Assembly: GCA_024542975.1 (NCBI GenBank)
Contig: JAMXCZ010000001.1
Coordinates: forward strand, 24,141-88,140
Length of the DNA stretch: 64,000 bases
Direction: 5' to 3'
From: Candidatus Omnitrophota bacterium
GTDB taxonomy: Bacteria; Omnitrophota; Gorgyraeia; JABMRN01; RBG-13-46-9
Shown: piece after piece, positions 4,472-33,109 of the stretch
Position numbering within the stretch: the first letter of the stretch is position 1
Layout: each line of letters opens with the position of its first letter
Notes under the pieces: generated by a model
What the model was told of the DNA's origin: nothing
The model's input: the letters and a program-made list of their open reading frames with translations, nothing else
Database searches by the model: none
Position numbers and translations under genes: made by a program

Positions 4472-5126
4472 TTGCCGTCTCCCTAGTTACTTTTAACCCG
4501 ATTTTCTCGCCTTTGTAAACCCATACCTTAATGCCGATAAGGCCGTAAGTCGTATGGGCCTCGGTAAAACCGTAGTCAATATCAGCCCGCAACGTTTGCA
4601 GGGGTATTTTTCCGTATCGTATAGTTTCTTTTCTCGCGATTTCTGCCCCTCCGAGCCTCCCGGAAAGTTTTATCTTCAACCCCTCACAACCTGCGTCTCT
4701 GGCCATCTGAAGTGACCGTTTTAAAGTTCTCTTAAACGCTACCCTCTTCTCAAGCTGCAGGGCTATGTTTTCAGCGATAAGCTGCGCCTCAGTTGCGGCC
4801 TGTTTTACCTCTTTTATATCCAGAAAAATCTGTTTTTCACCTATGTAAGATTGCAGTTCTTCTTTTAAGGCCTCGATTTCAGATCCTCTCCTGCCTATCA
4901 CAACGCCGGGCCTCGCCGTATGGATGATGAGCCGTATTCGTTCGCCTGTGCGTTCTATTTCAATATTGGAGACTGCGGCCCCGTAGAGCTTGTTCTTCAC
5001 GTATCTCCTTAGCCGTATATCCTCGATAAGCATCGAAGGAAAACTCTCCTTTTTGGCAAACCACCTGGATCTCCAATCCTTTATTATTCCCACTCGTAAA
5101 CCGTATGGATGTGCTTTTTGGCCCAT
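4446..5126 (-). CDS. rpsC: 30S ribosomal protein S3
   Basis: 226 aa starting [24 protein letters not shown]…, an S3 KH domain. Confidence 0.95.
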
Positions 5127-8804: not shown

Positions 8805-10001
8805 TTATTCGCTAATCTCCGTTACCACACCGGCTCCTACGGTGTGCCCGCCTTCGCGTATGGCGAAGCGCAGGCCTTTTTCCATTGCTATGGGCTCTAT
8901 GAGGACTATATCCATCGTTACGTTGTCGCCGGGCATCACCATTTCAACGTCTTTGGGCAGCGTAACGCTTCCGGTTACGTCGGTGGTTCTGAAGTAGAAC
9001 TGCGGCCTGTAGCCGTTAAAGAAGGGTGTGTGGCGGCCTCCCTCTTCTTTCGTAAGGATGTAGGCCTCTCCCTTGCATTTTGTGTGGGGGGTTATGGTGC
9101 CGGGTTTAGCGAGCACCTGGCCTCGCATGAGGTCCTTCTTCTCTACGCCTCTAAGGAGGACACCAATGTTATCGCCTGCCTGGCCGTGGTCGAGTATCTT
9201 TCGGAACATTTCAACGCCTGTTACTACGCTCTTCTTGGTGGGTTTAAGGCCTACGAGCTCTATCTCTTCGCCTGTTTTCACCTGGCCGCGTTCTACCCGG
9301 CCTGTGCCTACGGTGCCTCTTCCGGTTATGCTGAATACATCTTCTATCGGCATGAGGAAGGGCTTATCTATGTCTCTCTTGGGTGTGGGAATAAAGTCGT
9401 CTACGGCTTTCATCAGTTCAAATATGCATTTTACGGCCTCTGCGTCATCGGGAGAGCGCATGGCTTTGAGAGCGCTTCCTTTTACAACCGGCGTCTTATC
9501 TCCCGGGAACTTATATTTTGTCAGAAGCTCTCTTACTTCGAGTTCTACGAGGTCTAAGAGCTCTTTGTCATCTACGAGGTCTATCTTATTGAGGAAGACT
9601 ACGATTGCGGGAACGTTTACCTGGCGGGCTAAGAGTATGTGCTCCCTTGTCTGGGGCATGGGGCCGTCTGCGGCTGATACTACGAGTATGGCGCCGTCCA
9701 TCTGGGCTGCGCCGGTTATCATGTTTTTGATGTAGTCGGCGTGGCCGGGGCAGTCTATGTGGGCGTAATGCCGCTTTTCGGTCTCGTATTCAACGTGCGC
9801 TACTGCGATGGTAAGGATCTTGTTTTTGTCCCTTACCAATCCGCCTTTTGCGATTTCCGCATAGCTTTTGGCCTGAGCCTGGCCTTTTGTTGCAAGGACA
9901 GTGGTTATAGCGCTTGTGAGACAGGTCTTGCCGTGGTCAATATGTCCAATGGTGCCTACATTCACATGAGGTTTTGTGCGTTCAAACTTTTGCTTTGCCA
10001 T
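8805..10001 (-). CDS. tuf: Elongation factor Tu (copy 1, end of str operon)
   Basis: 398 aa with GHIDHGKT and DCPGHADY GTPase motifs. Full-length EF-Tu. Strong SD (aggagg) upstream. Confidence 0.98.
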
Positions 10002-24047: not shown

Positions 24048-24198
24048 CTATTTAATTTCTTTATGTTTCGTGTGTTTCCTGCAAAATGGACAATATTTCG
24101 AGCGCTCCATCCGCGTCGGGTTTTTCTTTTTATTTTTTATAGAACTGTAATTTCTGTTTTTGCACTCCGGGCATTCAAATGTTATTATGTCTTGCACG
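24048..24198 (-). CDS. rpmG: 50S ribosomal protein L33 (zinc-ribbon type) with apparent frameshift in a G4/T5 homopolymer
   Basis: Own translation. GTG at 24196-24198 gives [26 protein letters not shown], the L33 N-terminus. The C-terminal half …[23 protein letters not shown] is in a different frame. The shift lies at cgggg/ttttt around 24117-24125. Confidence 0.6.
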
Positions 24199-25401
24199 GT
24201 TATTCGCTAATCTCCGTTACCACACCGGCTCCTACGGTGTGCCCGCCTTCGCGTATGGCGAAGCGCAGGCCTTTTTCCATTGCTATGGGCTCTATGAGGA
24301 CTATATCCATCGTTACGTTGTCGCCGGGCATCACCATTTCAACGTCTTTGGGCAGCGTAACGCTTCCGGTTACGTCGGTGGTTCTGAAGTAGAACTGCGG
24401 CCTGTAGCCGTTAAAGAAGGGTGTGTGGCGGCCTCCCTCTTCTTTCGTAAGGATGTAGGCCTCTCCCTTGCATTTTGTGTGGGGGGTTATGGTGCCGGGT
24501 TTAGCGAGCACCTGGCCTCGCATGAGGTCCTTCTTCTCTACGCCTCTAAGGAGGACACCAATGTTATCGCCTGCCTGGCCGTGGTCGAGTATCTTTCGGA
24601 ACATTTCAACGCCTGTTACTACGCTCTTCTTGGTGGGTTTAAGGCCTACGAGCTCTATCTCTTCGCCTGTTTTCACCTGGCCGCGTTCTACCCGGCCTGT
24701 GCCTACGGTGCCTCTTCCGGTTATGCTGAATACATCTTCTATCGGCATGAGGAAGGGCTTATCTATGTCTCTCTTGGGTGTGGGAATAAAGTCGTCTACG
24801 GCTTTCATCAGTTCAAATATGCATTTTACGGCCTCTGCGTCATCGGGAGAGCGCATGGCTTTGAGAGCGCTTCCTTTTACAACCGGCGTCTTATCTCCCG
24901 GGAACTTATATTTTGTCAGAAGCTCTCTTACTTCGAGTTCTACGAGGTCTAAGAGCTCTTTGTCATCTACGAGGTCTATCTTATTGAGGAAGACTACGAT
25001 TGCGGGAACGTTTACCTGGCGGGCTAAGAGTATGTGCTCCCTTGTCTGGGGCATGGGGCCGTCTGCGGCTGATACTACGAGTATGGCGCCGTCCATCTGG
25101 GCTGCGCCGGTTATCATGTTTTTGATGTAGTCGGCGTGGCCGGGGCAGTCTATGTGGGCGTAATGCCGCTTTTCGGTCTCGTATTCAACGTGCGCTACTG
25201 CGATGGTAAGGATCTTGTTTTTGTCCCTTACCAATCCGCCTTTTGCGATTTCCGCATAGCTTTTGGCCTGAGCCTGGCCTTTTGTTGCAAGGACAGTGGT
25301 TATAGCGCTTGTGAGACAGGTCTTGCCGTGGTCAATATGTCCAATGGTGCCTACATTCACATGAGGTTTTGTGCGTTCAAACTTTTGCTTTGCCATTGTT
25401 T
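24199..25401. repeat. About 1.2-kb duplicate covering the tuf CDS plus SD region; the other copy is at 8804-10006
   Basis: The two tuf ORFs give identical 398-aa translations. Flanks checked by eye: identity starts at the stop codon and ends at the first mismatch just past the SD (g/a in ggccct/agccct). Confidence 0.9.
24200..25396 (-). CDS. tuf: Elongation factor Tu (copy 2, tufB-like)
   Basis: 398-aa translation identical to copy 1. Sits in the conserved tRNA-Thr / tuf / (rpmG) / tRNA-Trp / secE / nusG context. Confidence 0.98.
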
Positions 25402-25430
25402 AGCCCTCCTATTCATTAATAACCCACGAC

Positions 25431-26105
25431 TCATGACTTACCGCTTACAGCAGAGCCCATGATCGGCTTCGAACCGATGACCTCATCCTTACCATGGATG
25501 TGCTCTACCAACTGAGCTACATGGGCATATTCTCTCGCCCAATCTTTGATTATGCCTAAAAGTTTCGTATTGTGTACGTATATTGTAATCGTACCGAATT
25601 CCGAATGCCTCTTTACGCTTCCGCCGTTTCGGTTTTTCAAAATTGTCGTTTTTGTAAATTGGGTTATCGCGAGGCCTAGAAATTTTGCCCAGTACCCCTT
25701 CGCCTTTTTACGCGAAATATCCGGGTACACGATCAAAGACATTTTTATCTTATCGTTTTCCACTCCGCAGACAACTTTTAAAAATTTAACAAAAATTTTC
25801 ACGAGCGCGGGATTGGAATTGGAAAAACGCACTGAGTTTTTATTTTTTGTATTTCCTTCTGTGAGATAAAGCCCAAGCGCCATCGCCTTCAGATGGTCTT
25901 CTTCGGGTGTAAGATCTGACAGGATATCGAAGGGGTCACCGCTTCGGTTATTCTTGATGTAGGAAGCCTCTTTGTGGCTACGTATGGTGATCTTATTTAA
26001 AGACAGTACTCCGCGTACTTTTCTCGTCGAAATGCCATACATGGAGGCCACTTCACTCACTGAATTTCCGCTTCTGTAACTCCTAATGATTTCACCGGTT
26101 TCCAT
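25431..26105 (-). CDS. Hypothetical protein with N-terminal helix-turn-helix and a LAGLIDADG-like motif (possible homing-endonuclease-like); reading frame runs through tRNA-Thr
   Basis: ORF track 224 aa. HTH: EIIRSYRSGNSVSEVASMYGISTRKVRGVL. LAGLIDADG-like: AMALGLYLTEGNTKNKNSVRFSNSNPALVKIFVKFLK. The last 31 codons (25431-25526) are the antisense of tRNA-Thr with no in-frame stop before 25431, so the real C-terminus is uncertain. Confidence 0.45.
   Translation of the reverse strand: METGEIIRSYRSGNSVSEVASMYGISTRKVRGVLSLNKITIRSHKEASYIKNNRSGDPFDILSDLTPEEDHLKAMALGLYLTEGNTKNKNSVRFSNSNPALVKIFVKFLKVVCGVENDKIKMSLIVYPDISRKKAKGYWAKFLGLAITQFTKTTILKNRNGGSVKRHSEFGTITIYVHNTKLLGIIKDWAREYAHVAQLVEHIHGKDEVIGSKPIMGSAVSGKS
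25454..25526 (-). tRNA. thrT: tRNA-Thr (anticodon GGT)
   Basis: Reverse complement is GCCCATGTAGCTCAGTTGGTAGAGCACATCCATGGTAAGGATGAGGTCATCGGTTCGAAGCCGATCATGGGCT. Anticodon loop AUGGUAA. Directly upstream of tuf as in thrT-tufB. Confidence 0.85.
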
Positions 26106-26152
26106 GCTTTCCTGCTTCTGTAGGAGAAACTCGTTCAGGGTAACAAAGTCCT

Positions 26153-26182
26153 AAATATACCACATAAAGCCCGTTTGTCAAG
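26153..26182 (-). promoter_or_regulatory. Candidate sigma70-type promoter for the HTH/LAGLIDADG-like ORF (TTGACA -35, 17-18 nt spacer, TGgTATATT extended -10)
   Basis: Minus-strand read …ggcTTGACAaacgggctttatgtggTATATTtagg…, about 45 nt upstream of the ATG at 26105. Confidence 0.3.
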
Positions 26183-26221
26183 CCTTTTTTTAACTTTTTT
26201 TAGCTTTTTTATCATAGCTGT

Positions 26222-26351
26222 CCAAATTAGCTACCGTGTCATTCCTGTGAAGCTTGTCCCTGCGAAAGCAGGGACAAGCTTCACAGGAATGACAGAGAAA
26301 ACGGACTTTTGGCACAGTCTGTTCGCGGGAATGGCACGGTAGCAAATTTGG
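26222..26351. repeat. Nested inverted repeat: perfect 26-bp stem with GAAA tetraloop (26238-26293) flanked by 17-bp outer IR arms (26222-26238 and 26335-26351, 1 mismatch)
   Basis: Read directly: gtcattcctgtgaagcttgtccctgc-gaaa-gcagggacaagcttcacaggaatgac. Outer arms are ccaaattagctaccgtg and cacggtagcaaatttgg. Confidence 0.6.
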
Positions 26352-26398
26352 ACACGAGTGAAAAAGTACATGCAATTTTTAGCCGAACAGTTTACCTT

Positions 26399-26536
26399 CA
26401 TAGACGCGAGCGTGAAAACCTCTGCCGCGTTGAGGGCTTTATTGTATATCCTGACATCATCCATTGCGCCGCTGAAATAATATCCTCCCGCCTTTCCTAT
26501 GCTGAAAGGGGTGGTCATTCTATTTAACAAATCCAC
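26399..26536 (-). pseudogene. Remnant of a LamG/laminin-G-like (concanavalin-type) domain C-terminus
   Basis: Minus-strand ORF fragment …MTTPFSIGKAGGYYFSGAMDDVRIYNKALNAAEVFTLAS carries the characteristic LamG terminal motif (F.G.iDeVRIYNrALsaaEi). No upstream body; a stop lies immediately 5'. Confidence 0.35.
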
Positions 26537-26635
26537 TTTTCTTGTTACAGATGCATCTTTTTCCAGTACTCCATTTGCATAGAAATCAATATCTTCACCC
26601 CGTTTGCCTACAGTGATAGTTATATGCTGCCAGGT

Positions 26636-26796
26636 GAGAAAAAGGGGACGGTTCTCACTAAGATGTTCTGGATGAATGAGTTATGGCCAATTTATGCCTT
26701 ATTTAAAAAAACATGTAAAGGGTTGTGAAAATATCAATGAATAATTACGTAACTCCATGCTGCTTAATGAGACAGCAAGAACCGTCCCCTTTTTAT
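26636..26796. repeat. Long-range inverted repeat (17 bp exact, about 27 bp imperfect) separated by 122 nt, upstream of the protease gene
   Basis: Left arm gagaaaaaggggacggttctcactaag (26636-26662). Right arm cttaatgagacagcaagaaccgtcccctttttat (26763-26796). Exact core aaaaaggggacggttct / agaaccgtccccttttt. Confidence 0.5.
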
Positions 26797-26986
26797 GGTT
26801 CGCGCTAGTGGCGAACACTGCATCAATGTTAACTCTTACAAAAGTTAGCTATAATCGATTACCTTTTATGGGGCATCGGGTATACTTATTTTAGGTATAT
26901 AGCCGAGGTTTAAACCTTCTATCCGAGATGTTTTTTTGGCGATTAACTTAAAGTTTTGAAAAGTTTTGGAAGAGGGGGAAAATGAA

Positions 26987-29900
26987 ATGAAAACGAAAAG
27001 CATAGTCAGAATAGGTGCGATATTATGTTTCCTTGTTTTCGTAGCTGTGTTTTCTTCGGGAAATCCCGCATATGGGTTGTTGGATGAGAGTAGATCTAGA
27101 CAACGAAACCTGCTGGAAGCAGATCACCCCTACGCTCCCGGTGAGGTTTTGGTTAAGTTCAAAGAAGGGGTAGACCCGCAAGTAGCGCTCGAGAAGGGTA
27201 AAGTACGCGCCCAAAGCATTCAGCGCGCCTATTCTGTAAAGCCGGAGATAGCAAAATTTAAAAAAGACTACGCATTAGAAAGAGACCAAAACGGCTGGTA
27301 TTGGTTTAGGGGTAAAAACTACAAAGAAAGCGCCGATATCTCTGATGAGGAGTTCTTTCAGGAGGTTTACGCAGAGATGAGCCCTGAGAAAAAATCGCTC
27401 TATCGGACGTACAAAATAATCCTTCCCGAGAATATGAACGTTAAAGACGCAGTGATTAGATTACAACACGAGCCGTCTGTAGAATATGCCGAACCTAATT
27501 ATATTGCGAAAGCCTTTGCGGTGCCGAACGATCCTTATTACAACTCAAACGGAAGCTGGGGTCAGTCCTATGATGATTTGTGGGGGCTGAAGAAAATTCG
27601 GTGTCAAGCGGCTTGGAATGTCTCCCAGGGGGAAGGGGTGGTTGTCGCAGTGATAGATTCAGGGGTCGATTATAATCACGAAGATTTTTTCAAGGATGAA
27701 AACGGTAATGGCAGGTTAGACGAGGGTGAGCAATATAACATCTGGATAAATGAGGGCGAAATTCCGGGTAATGGTATCGATGATGACGCCAATGGCTATG
27801 TAGATGATATCTATGGTTATGACTTTGTTTATGGCGATCCAGATCCTTCCGATTTTTTTGGTCACGGTACCCATTGCGCCGGGACAATAGCCGCTGTTGG
27901 CAATAATAACTTGGGAGTTATTGGAGTTGCACCCAAGGCAAAGATTATGGTTCTTAAGGGGCTGAGCGACGACAGAGGATCCGGTAATAACGACACACTT
28001 GTAAATTGTATTAAGTATGCTGCGGATAATGGCGCGCATATTATCAGCAATTCCTGGGGAGGGCCAAGCGCACAAGCGTACAAAGATGTTTTTGCTTACG
28101 CCCAATCTCAAGGTTGTTTATCAATAGCTGCAGCGGGCAATAGCGGTGGGGATGAAATATTTTATCCTGCAGGCCTCTCAACTGTAATGGCTGTTTCCGC
28201 ATCCGATCACAATGACCAAATATGCCTTTTCTCTACTTACGGTGAGCACATAGAGGTTTCAGCTCCGGGTGGCGGCATACAAGATGAATTCGGCGGAGGC
28301 AGGGATGACCTATATAATATTTTATCCACCATGTCTGATAATTCAAAATTAGCTAAAAGTCACCCTAAACTTAAAATTTCCAATGGCTACTGGCGGATGG
28401 CAGGAACTTCCATGGCTTGTCCGCACGTAGCGGGCGTAGCCGCTTTGGCGCGTTCGATTTTTCCCGGTTTGACCAATGAAGAAATACGTCAGAAAATTCA
28501 AGCCGCTTCGAATGATATTGGCGAGGCGGGTAAAGATATTTATTTTGGCTACGGGCGAGTGGATGCATACGGCACTTTGCTAACTTTCGTTATTGATATA
28601 ACCTCTCCTCAACACCAAAGCTATATTCGCGGGAATGTAGATGTTTTTGGTAATGCCTTTGTTGGTGATGGCAAGTTTCAGAGCTATGAGCTTTACTGCG
28701 CTTCCAAAGATAATTCCGGCGAAGAGCCCCCTGTTTTGATTATCTCTTCCAATAATCCTGTCCAAGATGGATTTTTAACCCTGCCTGATAAGCCGTGGGA
28801 TACCACTCAATGCTCTGAAGGAAGCAATATTCTTACTCTAAAAGTTATTACTACAGACGGCGTTGAGTTGACAAGTTTTATCGGGGTAATTATCGACAAT
28901 GAGAATCAACCTCCCGAATTTATTAATCTTAGGGATAAACAGGTAGCCGTAGACGAAATTATTAGGTTTAAAGTAGAAGCGCAAGACCCGGATGACCCCA
29001 AACATCCTTTAGGATGGGGGGAATTAGTCTATTCCGCAGATAGCCTTCCTGAAGGTGCGGAGTTTAATCCGCAGACTCAAATCTTTTTCTGGCGTCCTGG
29101 CGAACTAGGCGTCTACGAAGTTAGTTTCAAGGTAAGCGACAGTGCTTATACCATAGCAAGAACCATAGCCATTACTACACATGTTATGCAGAAAATGCGG
29201 ATAACCACCGAACTTTCATACAAAGATTCCGCCCATATTTATATGGATAAGATTGTTTGGATGGACGATCGTAATAACGGCCAGCCTGATATTTATCTGT
29301 ACGATCTATCCACGGGTCGGGAGATTCAAGTGACCGATAGTAGTTATGCCGAGCTAGACCCTTTTGTTTACGAAGATAAAATTCTCTGGTGGGATGGCTC
29401 AAGCGAAATGTACGCTGAATACCCTTATATAAACTACGATATCTTCATGCGCACCTATGATTCTCTTACCGGCAAACTCGGCCCAATAATCCAGGTAACA
29501 ACCGACCCTCACGCACAATCCGTACCTAAAATGTACAAAGATAAAATTCTCTGGACTGATAACCGAAACGGCATGCTTGATGTTTACTTACGTACTTACG
29601 ATTCTTCTACGGGTGAGTTGGGCCCGGAAGTCGCAATAACTTCCGATCCCGACTACTATCAGTATCAGGCATCTATGTATGAAGATACGATTGTTTGGGC
29701 CGATGAACGAGTGGGCCAATTGTATTATTTTGGTATTTACATGCGTACTTATGATTCTTCCACAGGTGAGTTAGGGCCGGAAATTGGAGTATGTACGAAT
29801 CCTAGCATGCAGATAGGTCCTCTTATCAATAGAGATAGAATTGTCTGGCTGGACTGGCGAAATGGAGGCATTCAAAACCCCGATATTTATATGCGTGGGT

Positions 29901-30649
29901 ATGACTCTTCCACCGGGGAGCTTGGCCCAGAGATGCCGCTTGTTACCAACCCTTCAAAACAGGTGTGTGGAAGAATATATGAAAACAATGTCCTCTGGGT
30001 TGATGATCGCTTTGCTGATGGTCTACCATTTGCGGCATATGATTTCGACATCTATATGTATAATTTATCTACCGATCAAGAAATCCGGATAACTGATGAG
30101 ACAGGATATCAGTATGGTCCCTCTATGTATCATAACCGAATTGTCTGGTCTGGTTACGATTTAGAAGATAAAGGCTATGCTATTTATATGCTCTCAATAT
30201 TTTTATCCCCTCAAATTACCTCTCTTAGCCCGACTACGGTTTCAATTGGTTCCACTATTACCATAACAGGCAATAACTTTGGCTATACCGTGGAAAGAGC
30301 AGGCGTGAAATTTGCTAATGGAGTTCATGCGCTCATTGACTCATGGTCTAACGATGAGATTACCTGTAGGGTGCCGGAAGGGGCGCAATCAGGTTTGTTA
30401 AAAGTGATTACAAGAGGGGGAGAAAGCGAAGGGGTTCAGATAACAGTGGGGGTTCCTAGCGGTCTACCCGGTGATGTCAACGGTGACGGCAAAGTCGACA
30501 TACTCGACCTCAATATCGTAGCCCGGGCGTTCGGCTCGAGTAAAGGCGATCCCGGCTGGGATGCGAGGGCTGACCTTGATATAAGCGGCACAGTTGGCAT
30601 AGGCGACCTCATAATCGTGGCAAGGAATTTCGGGAAAGTGGCGGGTTGA
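26987..30649 (+). CDS. Secreted subtilisin-like serine protease (peptidase S8) with N-terminal fervidolysin-like prodomain, seven-blade TolB/PD40-like beta-propeller, IPT/TIG domain and C-terminal type-I dockerin
   Basis: Signal peptide MKTKSIVRIGAILCFLVFVAVFSSGNPAYG. Catalytic triad VVVAVIDSGVD / HGTHCAGTIAA / GTSMACPHVAGVAAL. Seven repeats of about 50 aa (…IVW.D.R.G..DIY.RTYDSSTGELGPE…). IPT-like PQITSLSPTTVSIGSTITITGNNFG… . Dockerin GDVNGDGKVDILDLNIVARAFG…DLDISGTVGIGDLIIVARNFG. Start taken as ATG 26987 (SD agaggggga 8 nt upstream); the ORF-finder TTG at 26966 was rejected. Confidence 0.9.
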   Translation: MKTKSIVRIGAILCFLVFVAVFSSGNPAYGLLDESRSRQRNLLEADHPYAPGEVLVKFKEGVDPQVALEKGKVRAQSIQRAYSVKPEIAKFKKDYALERDQNGWYWFRGKNYKESADISDEEFFQEVYAEMSPEKKSLYRTYKIILPENMNVKDAVIRLQHEPSVEYAEPNYIAKAFAVPNDPYYNSNGSWGQSYDDLWGLKKIRCQAAWNVSQGEGVVVAVIDSGVDYNHEDFFKDENGNGRLDEGEQYNIWINEGEIPGNGIDDDANGYVDDIYGYDFVYGDPDPSDFFGHGTHCAGTIAAVGNNNLGVIGVAPKAKIMVLKGLSDDRGSGNNDTLVNCIKYAADNGAHIISNSWGGPSAQAYKDVFAYAQSQGCLSIAAAGNSGGDEIFYPAGLSTVMAVSASDHNDQICLFSTYGEHIEVSAPGGGIQDEFGGGRDDLYNILSTMSDNSKLAKSHPKLKISNGYWRMAGTSMACPHVAGVAALARSIFPGLTNEEIRQKIQAASNDIGEAGKDIYFGYGRVDAYGTLLTFVIDITSPQHQSYIRGNVDVFGNAFVGDGKFQSYELYCASKDNSGEEPPVLIISSNNPVQDGFLTLPDKPWDTTQCSEGSNILTLKVITTDGVELTSFIGVIIDNENQPPEFINLRDKQVAVDEIIRFKVEAQDPDDPKHPLGWGELVYSADSLPEGAEFNPQTQIFFWRPGELGVYEVSFKVSDSAYTIARTIAITTHVMQKMRITTELSYKDSAHIYMDKIVWMDDRNNGQPDIYLYDLSTGREIQVTDSSYAELDPFVYEDKILWWDGSSEMYAEYPYINYDIFMRTYDSLTGKLGPIIQVTTDPHAQSVPKMYKDKILWTDNRNGMLDVYLRTYDSSTGELGPEVAITSDPDYYQYQASMYEDTIVWADERVGQLYYFGIYMRTYDSSTGELGPEIGVCTNPSMQIGPLINRDRIVWLDWRNGGIQNPDIYMRGYDSSTGELGPEMPLVTNPSKQVCGRIYENNVLWVDDRFADGLPFAAYDFDIYMYNLSTDQEIRITDETGYQYGPSMYHNRIVWSGYDLEDKGYAIYMLSIFLSPQITSLSPTTVSIGSTITITGNNFGYTVERAGVKFANGVHALIDSWSNDEITCRVPEGAQSGLLKVITRGGESEGVQITVGVPSGLPGDVNGDGKVDILDLNIVARAFGSSKGDPGWDARADLDISGTVGIGDLIIVARNFGKVAG
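29215..30190 (+). repeat. Intragenic tandem repeats (about 150-nt period, seven units) encoding the beta-propeller blades
   Basis: Nucleotide-level repeats visible, e.g. atgcgtacttatgattcttccacaggtgagttagggccggaa / ttacgtacttacgattcttctacgggtgagttgggcccggaa / atgcgtgggtatgactcttccaccggggagcttggcccagag. Confidence 0.55.
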
Positions 30650-30721
30650 AATAGGAGCCTTTTCACGTCCCGGGCAGATGCTATCTTTCGGGCAAAGCTC
30701 CACAAAATTTTTTCGAGTGAT

Positions 30722-31294
30722 TTAGTTTGAGCGGAGATGCTGGTCTACGTACTGGGCAATCATCTCGCGTATTTTGGCCGGCGGCAGGACTTTGAAATAG
30801 GCGCGGATAAGAGCGTGCGCAATTTCGTGTAAGAGTGTCGCCTCCGTACTCGTATTTGCGTAAGTGGTTATGGAATTGGTCGCGTGAGAATAAAAGGCGA
30901 TCGGGCCTCTTTCGTAGTGACGGTACACGTATATTTTTATGTGGAACCGCGCGGGATACATGTCGAGAATGGCCTCGACTTTTTCAACCAGCCTATCGAT
31001 CCTGTTTTTGGCGAGGCCGGGATATGAGTATATGTTTATCTCCTGGTCGCCCGTTATGTTCCAGAGAAAGGCCTCCAGGTCTTCTTCGTGAGTATAGAAT
31101 ATCGTGGTATATGCAGTCGAAAACGTTTCGAATTCTTCCGTCGCCTCGAGGCCGGTAATTTCTTCGACCGCTTCCTTGTTTTCGATCGCTTCTATGGATT
31201 CGGAATCTTCGGCAGGGGTTTCGGCGGCGATTGAGTAAGGTGCTTGAATAAAAAGGAGTGAGACAACAAGGAGGCTCTGGAAAAGTTTGCTCAT
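30722..31294 (-). CDS. Secreted hypothetical protein with C-terminal HExxH motif (putative small Zn-metallopeptidase)
   Basis: Signal peptide MSKLFQSLLVVSLLFIQAPYSIAAE, acidic linker, …TEATLLHEIAHALIRAY… . Confidence 0.55.
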   Translation of the reverse strand: MSKLFQSLLVVSLLFIQAPYSIAAETPAEDSESIEAIENKEAVEEITGLEATEEFETFSTAYTTIFYTHEEDLEAFLWNITGDQEINIYSYPGLAKNRIDRLVEKVEAILDMYPARFHIKIYVYRHYERGPIAFYSHATNSITTYANTSTEATLLHEIAHALIRAYFKVLPPAKIREMIAQYVDQHLRSN

Positions 31295-31298
31295 ACGG

Positions 31299-31874
31299 CT
31301 AGGAGGTTTTGAAAAAGGCGATTTTATCTTTTATTTTGGATATCGCATCCTTTACCTCTTTCACATGCGCGTCATTCGCATACCGCCCCGCAAAATCATC
31401 CGCCTCTCCCGTGGCGCGCTTTACCTCTTTAAGGCGACTGTCAATTGCGTCCAATGCCTTGTTGAGCGCCGTTTGCATTTCCTTAAGCTGGTCGGCTTTG
31501 CGCAATTTCACGCGTCCGACAAAATTCCCTTCGGCCATCTCACCCAGGGTTTTCTCAAACCTGAAAAGTGGGCCTGCGATCCTGTGAGAAAGCAGGACAA
31601 ATATAACGCTGCCCGCAAGCGCCATCGCCGTCCCGACAACGAGCGCAATTATCGCAAAGCTTGCGACAAAGAAGCTGGAGGTCCTTTCGATTACAAAGTG
31701 CGACCCGGAATAACCGGTCGTGAGCGTCTCGCCTGACATGTGCATAAAAAGCCCCGTGATAAAAAGCGCCTCGACAAGCAAAAGAAAAATGAAACCGAGA
31801 ATAAACTTTGTCTGGAAGGATTTTTTTATAAAATAATTTTTCCGCATCATTGGTTTTTTCCCGAATGCCTTCAT
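31299..31874 (-). CDS. Membrane protein with two TM helices and a HAMP domain, no recognisable output domain
   Basis: TM1 FILGFIFLLLVEALFITGLF, TM2 FFVASFAIIALVVGTAMALAGSVIFVLL, then a HAMP-like LSHRIAGPLFRFEKTLGEMAEGNFVGRVKLRKADQLKEMQTALNKALD. Confidence 0.55.
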   Translation of the reverse strand: MKAFGKKPMMRKNYFIKKSFQTKFILGFIFLLLVEALFITGLFMHMSGETLTTGYSGSHFVIERTSSFFVASFAIIALVVGTAMALAGSVIFVLLSHRIAGPLFRFEKTLGEMAEGNFVGRVKLRKADQLKEMQTALNKALDAIDSRLKEVKRATGEADDFAGRYANDAHVKEVKDAISKIKDKIAFFKTS

Positions 31875-32500
31875 TTTACGACTTCCTTTGCTATTAGTTT
31901 TTTGTTGATCTGTATTTCTGATCCCATTTTTTTCTCCTCCAGCCAGCTCTCGAGCTTCTCGGCCTTCTTTCTTCTCGTTATGGCTTCTTTTACCCGGTCA
32001 TGGATCTCTTCAAGAGGCGGAAGATTGGAGTTTTTCCCCGTAATGCTCTTGTAGTATAGCTCCACTTCCCCGTCAGTTACGAAAACGTAACGGTCTAATT
32101 CCTCATTTTTACGGTTAACGAAATCCCGTATCAGCGTCTGCTCCCAGAACGCCTTTATCGTATCAACAAAACCCTGTTCTTCAGCCATTTTTTTATCCAT
32201 GGCTTCCTGTATAATGAGTTGCCTCTTAATTAAATTATCGACCAGGTCATCCAACATCTTCCCGTCAACCTCGAGGGTGGGATCCTGCCTCACCCTGTTT
32301 GAAATCTCACGCCTAAGTTCTTTGAGGTAAATGGGTTTGCCATTTACGGTCGCAACGGAGGTAGTTTCTTCTTTTTCTTGGGAGCCGCAGCCAGGCAGGA
32401 ACAAAAGAGCCGCAAGTATCATTGCCGAAAACGATCTGTACTTTGCGATTTCCTTCATGTGTTTCATTTTATTCCTTTTTAAACATTTTAGCAAGAACAA
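31871..32500 (-). CDS. Lipoprotein with SurA N-terminal-like chaperone domain
   Basis: Lipobox LFLPGCGS; …TVNGKPIYLKELRREI… resembles SurA/PpiD N-domain. Likely start at internal M (MKHMKEIAKY…). Overlaps the downstream gene by 4 nt. Confidence 0.5.
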   Translation of the reverse strand: MFLLKCLKRNKMKHMKEIAKYRSFSAMILAALLFLPGCGSQEKEETTSVATVNGKPIYLKELRREISNRVRQDPTLEVDGKMLDDLVDNLIKRQLIIQEAMDKKMAEEQGFVDTIKAFWEQTLIRDFVNRKNEELDRYVFVTDGEVELYYKSITGKNSNLPPLEEIHDRVKEAITRRKKAEKLESWLEEKKMGSEIQINKKLIAKEVVK

Positions 32501-32628
32501 AAATCCCTACGTGCGTATGGAGCGTTCTTCTTCGCTGAATATTTACATATTCAGCTTCGAAGAAACTGCTTTTCTGCTTCGCGAATTCCTGCGAAGCCGA
32601 AAGCGAAAGCATTTCGGCGAAGCAGAAG

Positions 32629-32699
32629 AGCGGGAGAGCGGAATCGAACCGCCGTGTGTAGCTTGGAAGGCTACCGTTCTACCATTGAACTACTCCCGC
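32629..32699 (-). tRNA. glyT: tRNA-Gly (anticodon TCC)
   Basis: Reverse complement is GCGGGAGTAGTTCAATGGTAGAACGGTAGCCTTCCAAGCTACACACGGCGGTTCGATTCCGCTCTCCCGCT. Anticodon loop CUUCCAA. Confidence 0.85.
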
Positions 32700-32842
32700 A
32701 TTTGCGAAGCAAATGCGATTCTGAGGCAGTGCAGAAGATGCGACGACCTGAGGCATACCTTCGTAAGGTCCTTCGTCAAAACGAATTGCTCCCTTGAGTC
32801 ACAATTTGTGTTTTCCCCAGGATTACTTCTGCTTCGCAGAAG

Positions 32843-32929
32843 TGGTGGGGAGAGAAGGATTCGCACCTTCGTAGGCTAAAAGCCGCCAGATTTACAGTCT
32901 GGTCCGTTTGACTACTCCGGCATCTCCCC
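32843..32929 (-). tRNA. tyrU: tRNA-Tyr (anticodon GTA), long variable arm, CCA encoded
   Basis: Reverse complement is GGGGAGATGCCGGAGTAGTCAAACGGACCAGACTGTAAATCTGGCGGCTTTTAGCCTACGAAGGTGCGAATCCTTCTCTCCCCACCA. Confidence 0.85.
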
Positions 32930-33033
32930 AAATTTTCAAAGAAAAAATTTCGTAAAGGTCCTTCGCTCTGCAAAAAATGCTCCTATTCGTCGCATTTTTT
33001 ATGTCGCTCAGGATCACTTCTGCTTCGCAGAAG

Positions 33034-33109
33034 TGGAGCTAGCGGTCCGAATTGAACGGACGACATCCTCATTACAAGTGAGGTGCTCTACCAACTGAGC
33101 TACGCTAGC
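33034..33109 (-). tRNA. thrU: tRNA-Thr (anticodon TGT), CCA encoded
   Basis: Reverse complement is GCTAGCGTAGCTCAGTTGGTAGAGCACCTCACTTGTAATGAGGATGTCGTCCGTTCAATTCGGACCGCTAGCTCCA. Confidence 0.85.

Follow-up and report, generated by a model that had tools for sequence, protein, structure and literature searches.

A homing-endonuclease-like gene of Omnitrophota directly upstream of tRNA-Thr(GGT) with a conserved same-strand overlap between reading frame and tRNA

In the genome of a Candidatus Omnitrophota bacterium (contig JAMXCZ010000001.1, assembly GCA_024542975.1), an open reading frame (ORF) of 224 codons runs without a stop into a tRNA-Thr(GGT) gene, through it and beyond its 3′ end. This raises the question whether such a frame is a gene at all, whether the residues encoded by the tRNA belong to its protein, and what kind of protein would be kept at such a place. 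The stretch analyzed here comprises 64,000 nt (positions 24,141 to 88,140 of the contig) and is called the window in the following; positions are those of the window. The original prediction, made from the letters of the window, was an ORF encoding a helix-turn-helix (HTH) and a LAGLIDADG-like motif with its own promoter, interpreted as a mobile or selfish element that may have caused a local rearrangement. The observation was largely right; its interpretation as a selfish element causing a rearrangement is only partly right. As a whole, the locus is explained best, and with moderate confidence, by a long-resident, probably domesticated derivative of a homing endonuclease with a selected tRNA-encoded tail. 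What seems to be new is a family of tRNA-flanking, homing-endonuclease-like genes with a conserved same-strand overlap in which one sequence codes for both protein and tRNA. Neither the gene family nor the overlap was found described in literature searches.

According to the list of open reading frames of the window, the frame is uninterrupted from its ATG to the TGA at 25431-25433 on the minus strand and encodes a product of 224 amino acids, as had been noted before. The last 31 codons had been taken for the antisense of the tRNA gene, which is wrong, since ORF and tRNA-Thr lie on the same strand and these codons are read from the tRNA sense sequence. Codon 194 (GCC) coincides with tRNA position +1 at 25526, and the frame is open across the entire tRNA (AHVAQLVEHIHGKDEVIGSKPIMGS) up to the stop codon. 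The first nine tRNA-encoded residues, AHVAQLVEH, derive from the acceptor and D-arm sequence.

In a search of 5.8 billion proteins, 81 homologues with 57-91% identity to the ORF product were found, all of them unnamed and, where one of the few organism labels among them is given, assigned to Omnitrophota. A scan of genome representatives revealed 14 loci with the ORF, all in metagenome-assembled genomes of Omnitrophota, some of which are deposited as 'uncultured Planctomycetia', and a metagenome scan added 22 further loci; both scans relied on short peptide patterns, and the spread within Omnitrophota is not read from their counts. A profile search in 1.84 billion cluster representatives extended the family to 901 proteins at E <= 1e-10, and no paralogue is present elsewhere in the 64-kb window. 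Selection was analyzed with Nei-Gojobori counts for the 193 codons upstream of the tRNA only (codons 1-193, tRNA part excluded). The median proportion of nonsynonymous differences (pN) is 0.15-0.18 compared to 0.77-0.83 for synonymous differences (pS, saturated), and the ratio of the corresponding rates (dN/dS) is 0.06-0.17 for unsaturated pairs, which holds true for each of three clades. Judged by the 81 homologues and the low dN/dS in three clades, the ORF is a genuine protein-coding gene under strong purifying selection.

Whether the tRNA-encoded part belongs to the selected protein can be addressed by comparing two classes of loci. In the overlapped class A (the window, about 25 other Omnitrophota loci, and the distant lineages L058 and L060), the codon directly preceding G+1 of the tRNA encodes Tyr, and this junction lies at the identical nucleotide in every overlapped locus. 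In class B, formed by 12 Omnitrophota loci, the ORF stops 2-113 nt ahead of the tRNA. The last nine codons of class B encode S/T-Y-V/I-A-Q-I/L-V-E-H/R, followed by the stop codon, from their own DNA, and the equivalent peptide of class A, supplied by the tRNA acceptor and D-arm, is A-H/L-V-A-Q-L-V-E-H. Across the 12 distinct class B sequences, Ala is encoded in this tail by all four of its codons, Val and Ser by four codons each, Gln by CAG and CAA, Glu by GAA and GAG, and Leu/Ile by six codons, and its amino acids are fixed or only conservatively changed despite the synonymous turnover. By this comparison, purifying selection is on the tail peptide and not on an RNA or DNA motif; the codon turnover with a retained peptide in class B therefore marks the tRNA-encoded tail as a selected part of the protein. 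Orthologues that end before the tRNA had been named in the original prediction as an observation that would speak against it. Such orthologues are found in class B. As the peptide is encoded there a second time, ahead of the tRNA, they support translation of the overlap.

In a neighbor-joining tree of the 193-residue core, class B (bootstrap 82) is the sister group of two overlapped Omnitrophota clades (bootstrap 77), and the overlapped L058, L060 and P0082-P0084 branch outside of this group. The overlap is therefore ancestral, and the separation of ORF and tRNA is derived. Class B is taken to have arisen when about 27 nt from the tRNA 5′ end were duplicated, with one copy becoming coding and the other remaining tRNA. 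The last helix of the AlphaFold model (residues 180-206) crosses the junction between ORF and tRNA and reaches into the tail. Because class B stops at the equivalent of residue 202, the 22 residues past this point in the window protein are probably dispensable read-through. Among 280 family proteins that contain the last helix, 128 have C-termini recognizable as tRNA translations. If the tail is translated, peptides covering AHVAQLVEHIHGK would be the expected trace.

These data also bear on the possibility that the ORF is spurious, i.e., an open frame which gene callers run through a tRNA. Conceptual translation of tRNA genes (..VAQLVEH..) is known to give rise to false proteins, and the tail beyond residue 202 is without independent support. 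A false frame is, however, at odds with 193 conserved codons upstream of the tRNA with a dN/dS of about 0.1, with a confident AlphaFold model, with 901 cluster representatives in the family and with a tail peptide that is retained once it is separated from the tRNA. This explanation is hardly conceivable and was rejected on the basis of the homologues, the peptide kept in class B and the dN/dS values.

The tRNA itself shows two peculiarities. The anticodon loop of the window tRNA-Thr (25488-25494; CCATGGTAAGG) carries an A at position 32, where a purine is unusual. Within the loci L001-L060 and the window, A32 occurs in 22/22 ORF-overlapped tRNA-Thr(GGT) genes, in 4/11 tRNAs of class B and in 0/13 thrT sites lacking the ORF; it could be an immunity change against an endonuclease or reflect lineage history. 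The second peculiarity is the length of the D-loop, which has 8 nt in 22/22 overlapped tRNAs versus an additional one or two nucleotides in 4/11 separated ones. Longer D-loops (+1/+2 nt: AGTTTGGTA, AGTTGTGGTA, AGTCGTGGTA) were found in the non-overlapped tRNA-Thr(GGT) of L001, L033, L034, L035, and L042. In an overlapped gene such length changes would be frameshifts, and 0/22 overlapped genes have one. As evidence for a frame constraint, the D-loop length was discarded as weak, since a D-loop of 8 nt is also found at sites without the ORF and since the loci lack independence.

What the protein might be was analyzed at the level of sequence and of predicted structure. The strings SVSEVASMYGISTRKV and MALGLYLTEGN, on which the prediction of an HTH and a LAGLIDADG-like domain had been based, are both found in the ORF product. 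The HTH part was recovered as a sub-threshold HTH_28 match (Pfam/NCBIfam, E 0.002, residues 5-35). A LAGLIDADG-type motif helix, with a conserved Gly and a terminal acid followed by Gly, is present as ALGLYLTEG (E83-G84), and the family consensus of this motif from the profile search is GLGLYWGEG. The profile comparison with the LAGLIDADG families proposed earlier, which by its own terms counts against the claim, gave no match for the window protein: no Pfam or NCBIfam LAGLIDADG hidden Markov model (HMM) fits, even at E <= 10. One relative (P0091) shows LAGLIDADG_3 at E 0.0088, below the cut-off, and searches of PDB sequences with profiles of both close and broad family alignments found HTH proteins only. 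With hhalign, the family motif falls in register with motif 2 of I-DmoI (P 0.001), which is a lead only; the comparison to I-CreI was not significant. AlphaFold2 (27-sequence alignment) modeled the window protein with a mean predicted local distance difference test score of 80. The N-terminal domain consists of four helices (residues 2-52), and the alpha/beta domain comprises helix 67-83, strand 92-96, helix 99-112, strand 121-126, helix 132-143, the strands 150-155 and 172-177, and helix 180-206. A Foldseek comparison with PDB and BFVD revealed nothing significant, with OmpA-like and IspF folds as the best PDB matches. The protein is hence described as an HTH combined with a single LAGLIDADG-type domain, with moderate, not high, confidence in the fold.

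The missing HMM match and the non-significant E-values of the best PDB matches would also suit a transcription factor in which an HTH is joined to a novel alpha/beta domain and which does not derive from an endonuclease, its LAGLIDADG likeness being convergent or spurious. Such a factor would regulate the unit of thrT and tuf together with the downstream ribosomal protein genes and rpoBC, and the operon position as well as a leader motif described below are conserved. It is rather improbable in view of the register of GLGLYWGEG with I-DmoI motif 2, the sub-threshold LAGLIDADG_3 match of a relative and the location of family members beside tRNA genes with introns, which is in line with the biology of homing endonucleases.

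The N-terminal domain has a wider distribution of its own. The family profile search also yielded hundreds of proteins of 300-930 amino acids (among them P0107, P0111, P0119, P0121, and P0133) that consist of 5-14 tandem HTH units resembling this domain (profile positions 2-50). Among PDB sequences, they come closest to a Cbp1-like CRISPR-repeat-binding protein (2lvs) and a designed repeat protein (8vd6).

A heritage from homing endonucleases is backed by the fixed place of the family 5′ of tRNA genes, which holds for several phyla and includes tRNA genes with introns. The search for homologues next to tRNAs in related genomes, as suggested by the original prediction, gave a uniform picture. 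In a set of 46 loci carrying the ORF, each ORF whose 3′ end is on the contig abuts or overlaps tRNA-Thr(GGT). In the distant lineages L058 and L060 the ORF likewise reads into tRNA-Thr(GGT), the order in L058 being ORF, thrT, rpmG, tRNA-Trp, secE and so on, without tuf. In loci of the Patescibacteria type (L059, L061, L062, and L064), the stop codon of the ORF is located either 6-32 nt before tRNA-Thr(GGT) or inside the tRNA, where the protein ends with ..AEVAQW followed by a TAG in the D-loop. Such a nucleotide-precise place by a highly conserved gene in several phyla is the behavior expected of homing endonuclease genes (HEGs). The family can thus be described as a large, so far unannotated group of free-standing, homing-endonuclease-like genes which in all sampled lineages (Omnitrophota, Patescibacteria and others) lie directly 5′ of tRNA genes, mostly tRNA-Thr(GGU).

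In three of these loci (L059, L061, and L064), an insert of 180-220 nt interrupts the tRNA-Thr(GGU) that follows the ORF; it is placed behind the anticodon (36/37), begins after a U and ends in G. The three inserts have the blocks GAATCCCGAATAACGG, CAAGACCGTGGC, GCCCGAACGACTGACAAGG, and AAGATACAGTCTA in common. They are missed by Rfam (RF00028) and ARAGORN, and Rfam scans by E-value were empty. For tRNA-Thr of Patescibacteria, 'divergent group I introns' have been described, which are reported to be missed by RF00028 and ARAGORN and to lack homing endonucleases (PMC13011429). The blank Rfam result for the three inserts is explained by this property of RF00028, and the inserts match the published introns in that a tRNA-Thr(GGU) is split without detection by RF00028 and ARAGORN. 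They differ from that description in the endonuclease-like ORF directly upstream, of which that paper makes no mention, and the tRNA-Thr of the window differs in having no intron. In addition, a subfamily member (P0140, L065:120-1040) has tRNA-Thr(TGT) on one side and a tRNA-Tyr(GTA) with an intron on the other, its frame entering the 5′ exon of the latter (..GSVPEWSNGADCK..). The insert of this tRNA-Tyr contains a classical group I core (AAGATATAGTCC) and is apparently located at position 35/36. A further detail was seen in L059, where the 3′ end of the split tRNA-Thr (CCCGTCTTCGGCTCAGAAA) at 4852-4870 recurs about 135 nt downstream (4987-5005), resembling the remnant of an attachment site left by an integrated element.

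In the Omnitrophota lineage of the window, the gene is best read as a long resident that has not been mobile recently, because neither its site nor its flanking genes differ across deep divergence and purifying selection on it is strong. In one subclade (bootstrap 100), Glu83, which occupies the position of the catalytic acid, is replaced (H in L003, L005, L016, and L028; H or N across the subclade). The ORFs of this subclade are intact and constrained, and the function selected there is therefore not DNA cleavage. Where Glu83 is retained, as in the window, some residual nuclease activity may persist.

This distribution has to be weighed against a still-mobile, selfish homing endonuclease that cuts tRNA-Thr(GGU) genes lacking the ORF, for example in the pseudo-palindromic anticodon arm, copies itself before the tRNA and may have promoted the local rearrangement. 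Its signature could be seen in the Glu kept at the catalytic position here and across most of the family (GEG), in an insertion site that is identical to the nucleotide in several phyla, and in the A32 difference between overlapped and ORF-less genes, if this is an immunity change. The Patescibacterial relatives, moreover, adjoin tRNAs split by introns without HEGs, at or near the center of the anticodon-arm palindrome (PMC13011429). Yet the gene shows strong purifying selection and identical flanks in clades with only 57% identity, the subclade without the Glu keeps it, and loci of class B pair an ordinary T32 tRNA with a Glu-retaining ORF. No viral or plasmid context was seen, and the insertion of 6.4 kb upstream of the promoter is unlinked to the ORF by repeats and absent from relatives that carry the ORF. 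Recent mobility is thus considered unlikely. The claim of a mobile element behind the rearrangement was not supported, given the same site and flanks in distant relatives without the 6.4-kb insertion and the strong purifying selection.

The surroundings of the gene point in the same direction as its long residency. Downstream, the order tuf, rpmG, tRNA-Trp, secE, nusG, rplKAJL, and rpoBC was found, and the order ORF-thrT-tuf is kept in L001, L003, and L005. A second tuf follows fusA at 8805-10001. What had been noted as a duplicated tuf is the ordinary bacterial layout of tufA and tufB. The two copies are 100% identical across 1197 nt, suggesting either recent gene conversion, a process known for tufA/tufB, or an assembly collapse; many related contigs stop just after thrT, as expected if the repeated tuf breaks assemblies. 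Upstream, YbbR, PdxJ, ACPS, and Carb_kinase genes and a tRNA-Thr(TGT)/Tyr/Gly cluster (32628-33109) are located, and the order PdxJ-ACPS-Carb_kinase, tRNA Thr/Tyr/Gly, ORF, thrT is common to the window, L003, L005, and L060. A block of 6.4 kb between tRNA-Gly and the promoter of the ORF (26966-32500) is specific to the lineage of the window. It contains SurA_N-like and HAMP-like genes, small ORFs without assignment, an S8 subtilase of 1227 amino acids with TIG and dockerin domains on the plus strand, opposite to the ORF, and a LamG fragment. In relatives, tRNA-Gly is only 90-200 nt away from the promoter, which in L003 starts about 90 nt past tRNA-Gly. No repeats or duplications that link the ORF to the 6.4-kb block were found. 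The ORF as the cause of the tuf duplication or of the insertion was rejected for lack of linking repeats and because the insertion is missing in relatives that possess the ORF. At 26239-26292, about 60 nt before the promoter, lies an inverted repeat whose 25-bp arms match perfectly and enclose a loop of 4 nt (TCATTCCTGTGAAGCTTGTCCCTGC tttc GCAGGGACAAGCTTCACAGGAATGA). Its position is within or behind a Laminin_G_3 remnant (ORF 26231-26536), in which only the final ~35 residues of the domain are left, and it may represent either a terminator or a repeat element.

The coordinates of the features are summarized in Table 1.

Table 1. Features of the ORF-thrT-tuf locus and of the split tRNA genes in related loci. 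Coordinates refer to the window unless a locus is given.
Feature	Position	Strand	Remarks
Whole ORF, 224 codons + TGA	25431-26105	minus	ATG start at 26105, TGA at 25431-25433
N-terminal four-helix HTH domain, residues 1-52	25950-26105	minus	
LAGLIDADG-like alpha/beta domain, residues 60-193	25527-25928	minus	Wholly upstream of the tRNA
Motif MALGLYLTEGN, residues 75-85	25851-25883	minus	Glu83 at catalytic-acid position
C-terminal 31 codons, residues 194-224	25434-25526	minus	tRNA-Thr sense strand and 19 nt past it
tRNA-Thr(GGT), intron-less	25453-25526	minus	ARAGORN; Rfam RF00005, 66.9 bits
tuf (EF-Tu), next gene, same direction as ORF	24200-25396	minus	
A-rich tracts (aaaaaagctaaaaaaagttaaaaaaagg), UP-element-like	26184-26222	minus	Just upstream of -35; kept in 28/28 loci
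Sigma-70-type promoter: TTGACA, 16-nt spacer, TG-n-TATATT	26154-26181	minus	-35 at 26176-26181, -10 at 26154-26159
Leader motif CCTACAGA	26117-26124	minus	12-19 nt before start codon; invariant in 28/28 loci
Split tRNA-Thr(GGT) genes	L059:4596-4868, L061:3136-3419, L064:3110-3368		Downstream of ORF

The gene is preceded by a promoter that agrees with the TTGACA/TATATT site proposed earlier, for which the spacer could be set to 16 nt. It matches at 11/12 positions with an additional TG before the -10 element, and is the sole strong match within 2.6 kb (24100-26700). In 28/28 aligned Omnitrophota loci CTTGACAAA and TnTGnTAnAaT are conserved, and the A-tracts upstream may act as an UP element. 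The conserved pattern would suit a strong promoter of a tRNA or ribosomal protein gene. Since no terminator-like site was found between the ORF and tuf on the strand of the ORF, this promoter probably drives ORF, thrT, and tuf together. The leader motif CCTACAGA is directly followed by a purine-rich AGGA (26110-26113) resembling a Shine-Dalgarno (SD) sequence. Its neighboring bases vary and often pair with each other (GCC..GGC, UCC..GGA, AUCC..GGAU). RNAalifold found no consensus structure in the 28 leaders, and a hairpin sequestering the SD sequence is unproven. In distant family members the leader motif is absent.

An invariant 8-mer beside an SD-like sequence and a coding sequence physically fused to a tRNA could also be explained by a maturase-like protein that binds RNA of its own transcript, either the pre-tRNA-Thr or the leader with CCUACAGA, and controls tRNA processing or its own translation. 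Some LAGLIDADG proteins are indeed RNA maturases. Such a role is very unlikely, as the tRNA of the window has no intron, the HTH domain argues for DNA binding and the leader lacks a consensus RNA structure.

If the domesticated derivative of a homing endonuclease is taken as the basis, the following scheme can be proposed. The protein would most likely act as a sequence-specific DNA-binding protein, probably as a dimer and in the manner of WhiA, a domesticated nuclease. Its ORF would be the first cistron of a single transcript that comprises, behind A-tracts and extended -10 element, the leader, the ORF, tRNA-Thr, and tuf. The tRNA-encoded AHVAQLVEH would extend the last helix of the protein. 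Cleavage by RNase P at tRNA position +1 (25526/25527) would separate the ORF from its last 31 codons and its stop codon, so that full-length protein would be made only by ribosomes which pass before tRNA processing. The remaining transcripts would become non-stop mRNAs that require rescue by transfer-messenger RNA (tmRNA). In this way a DNA-binding protein, or a nuclease, would be kept scarce despite a strong promoter, and class B would have escaped the conflict between ribosome and RNase P by means of its duplication. As a speculation, the target of the protein might be the anticodon arm of thrT (CATCC-ATGGTAA-GGATG), a pseudo-palindrome and the insertion point of the introns in relatives.

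Several points weigh against this explanation, in addition to the missing LAGLIDADG model and the missing structural match. A weak promoter-like site inside the ORF (25549-25576, 9/12) could give the tRNA a transcript of its own. Glu83 is kept in the lineage of the window, and the term domesticated is drawn from a sister clade. Co-transcription with tRNA and tuf, competition with RNase P and rescue by tmRNA are all deduced from the sequence. Only tentatively, and with rather more doubt than confidence, a joint claim is therefore put forward. According to it, the 5′ third of the tRNA would encode a required C-terminal helix, with the output gated by a race between ribosome and RNase P; the family would form a new class of free-standing genes of LAGLIDADG type that home to the 5′ edge of tRNA genes and that, in Patescibacteria, might provide the missing mobility function for the HEG-less group I introns of tRNA-Thr and tRNA-Tyr, and the Omnitrophota gene would be a domesticated descendant.

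Same-strand overlaps of bacterial protein and tRNA genes are usually dismissed as annotation errors. The locus described here is a clean natural case in which one sequence serves as structural RNA and as coding DNA and in which tRNA-encoded residues are kept by selection, and it predicts a simple coupling of tRNA processing to protein output. The family places endonuclease-like genes beside tRNA genes with group I introns, whose description reports them as HEG-less (PMC13011429), and thereby offers a concrete route by which these tRNA introns might spread. It also provides a new set of compact HTH and LAGLIDADG-type proteins, whose DNA targets, the tRNA genes, can be guessed.

Among known systems, the LAGLIDADG homing endonucleases (I-CreI, I-CeuI, I-DmoI, and intein domains) have three features in common with the ORF product: the motif helix ends in G-E-G, a further DNA-binding module is present, as in many homing endonucleases, and the family is found at a single precise site within a strongly conserved gene region. 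In contrast, the ORF lacks a match at HMM level, is free-standing instead of lying within an intron or intein, is located at the 5′ boundary of a tRNA into which it reads, and has an atypical order of strands. Its sister subclade has lost the catalytic residue.

WhiA, a catalytically dead transcription factor of Gram-positive bacteria, likewise combines LAGLIDADG-type and sigma-4-like HTH domains, and is similar in its vertical inheritance, purifying selection, and conserved operon position. Its two degenerate LAGLIDADG domains without catalytic acids and its C-terminal HTH are not found in the ORF product, which has one domain, an N-terminal HTH and, in the window, Glu83. No sequence homology between the two was detected, and the similarity is restricted to the level of the fold.

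The Patescibacteria-type ORFs directly beside a gene with a HEG-less intron resemble collaborative homing, as known for F-CphI and psbA of cyanophages and for mobE and nrdB of T4-like phages, and SegB of the T4 tRNA cluster. Such partnerships of free-standing endonucleases and introns in phages have been reviewed (PMC3984707, PMC2790892). Those enzymes are of the HNH, Endo VII-like or GIY-YIG type and phage-encoded, whereas the proteins described here are LAGLIDADG-like and chromosomal and have a tRNA as partner. The arrangement is present only in L059, L061, L064, and L065; in the window, tRNA-Thr is uninterrupted.

Finally, the overlap recalls the tRNA punctuation of animal mitochondria, where an mRNA joined to or overlapping a tRNA is part of one transcript and tRNA processing sets the end of the mRNA. 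A single transcript with an mRNA joined to or overlapping a tRNA would be the common feature. The mitochondrial overlaps comprise a few nucleotides and complete a stop codon, whereas the ORF described here runs in frame through 74 nt of a bacterial tRNA, of which at least nine encoded residues are selected as protein.

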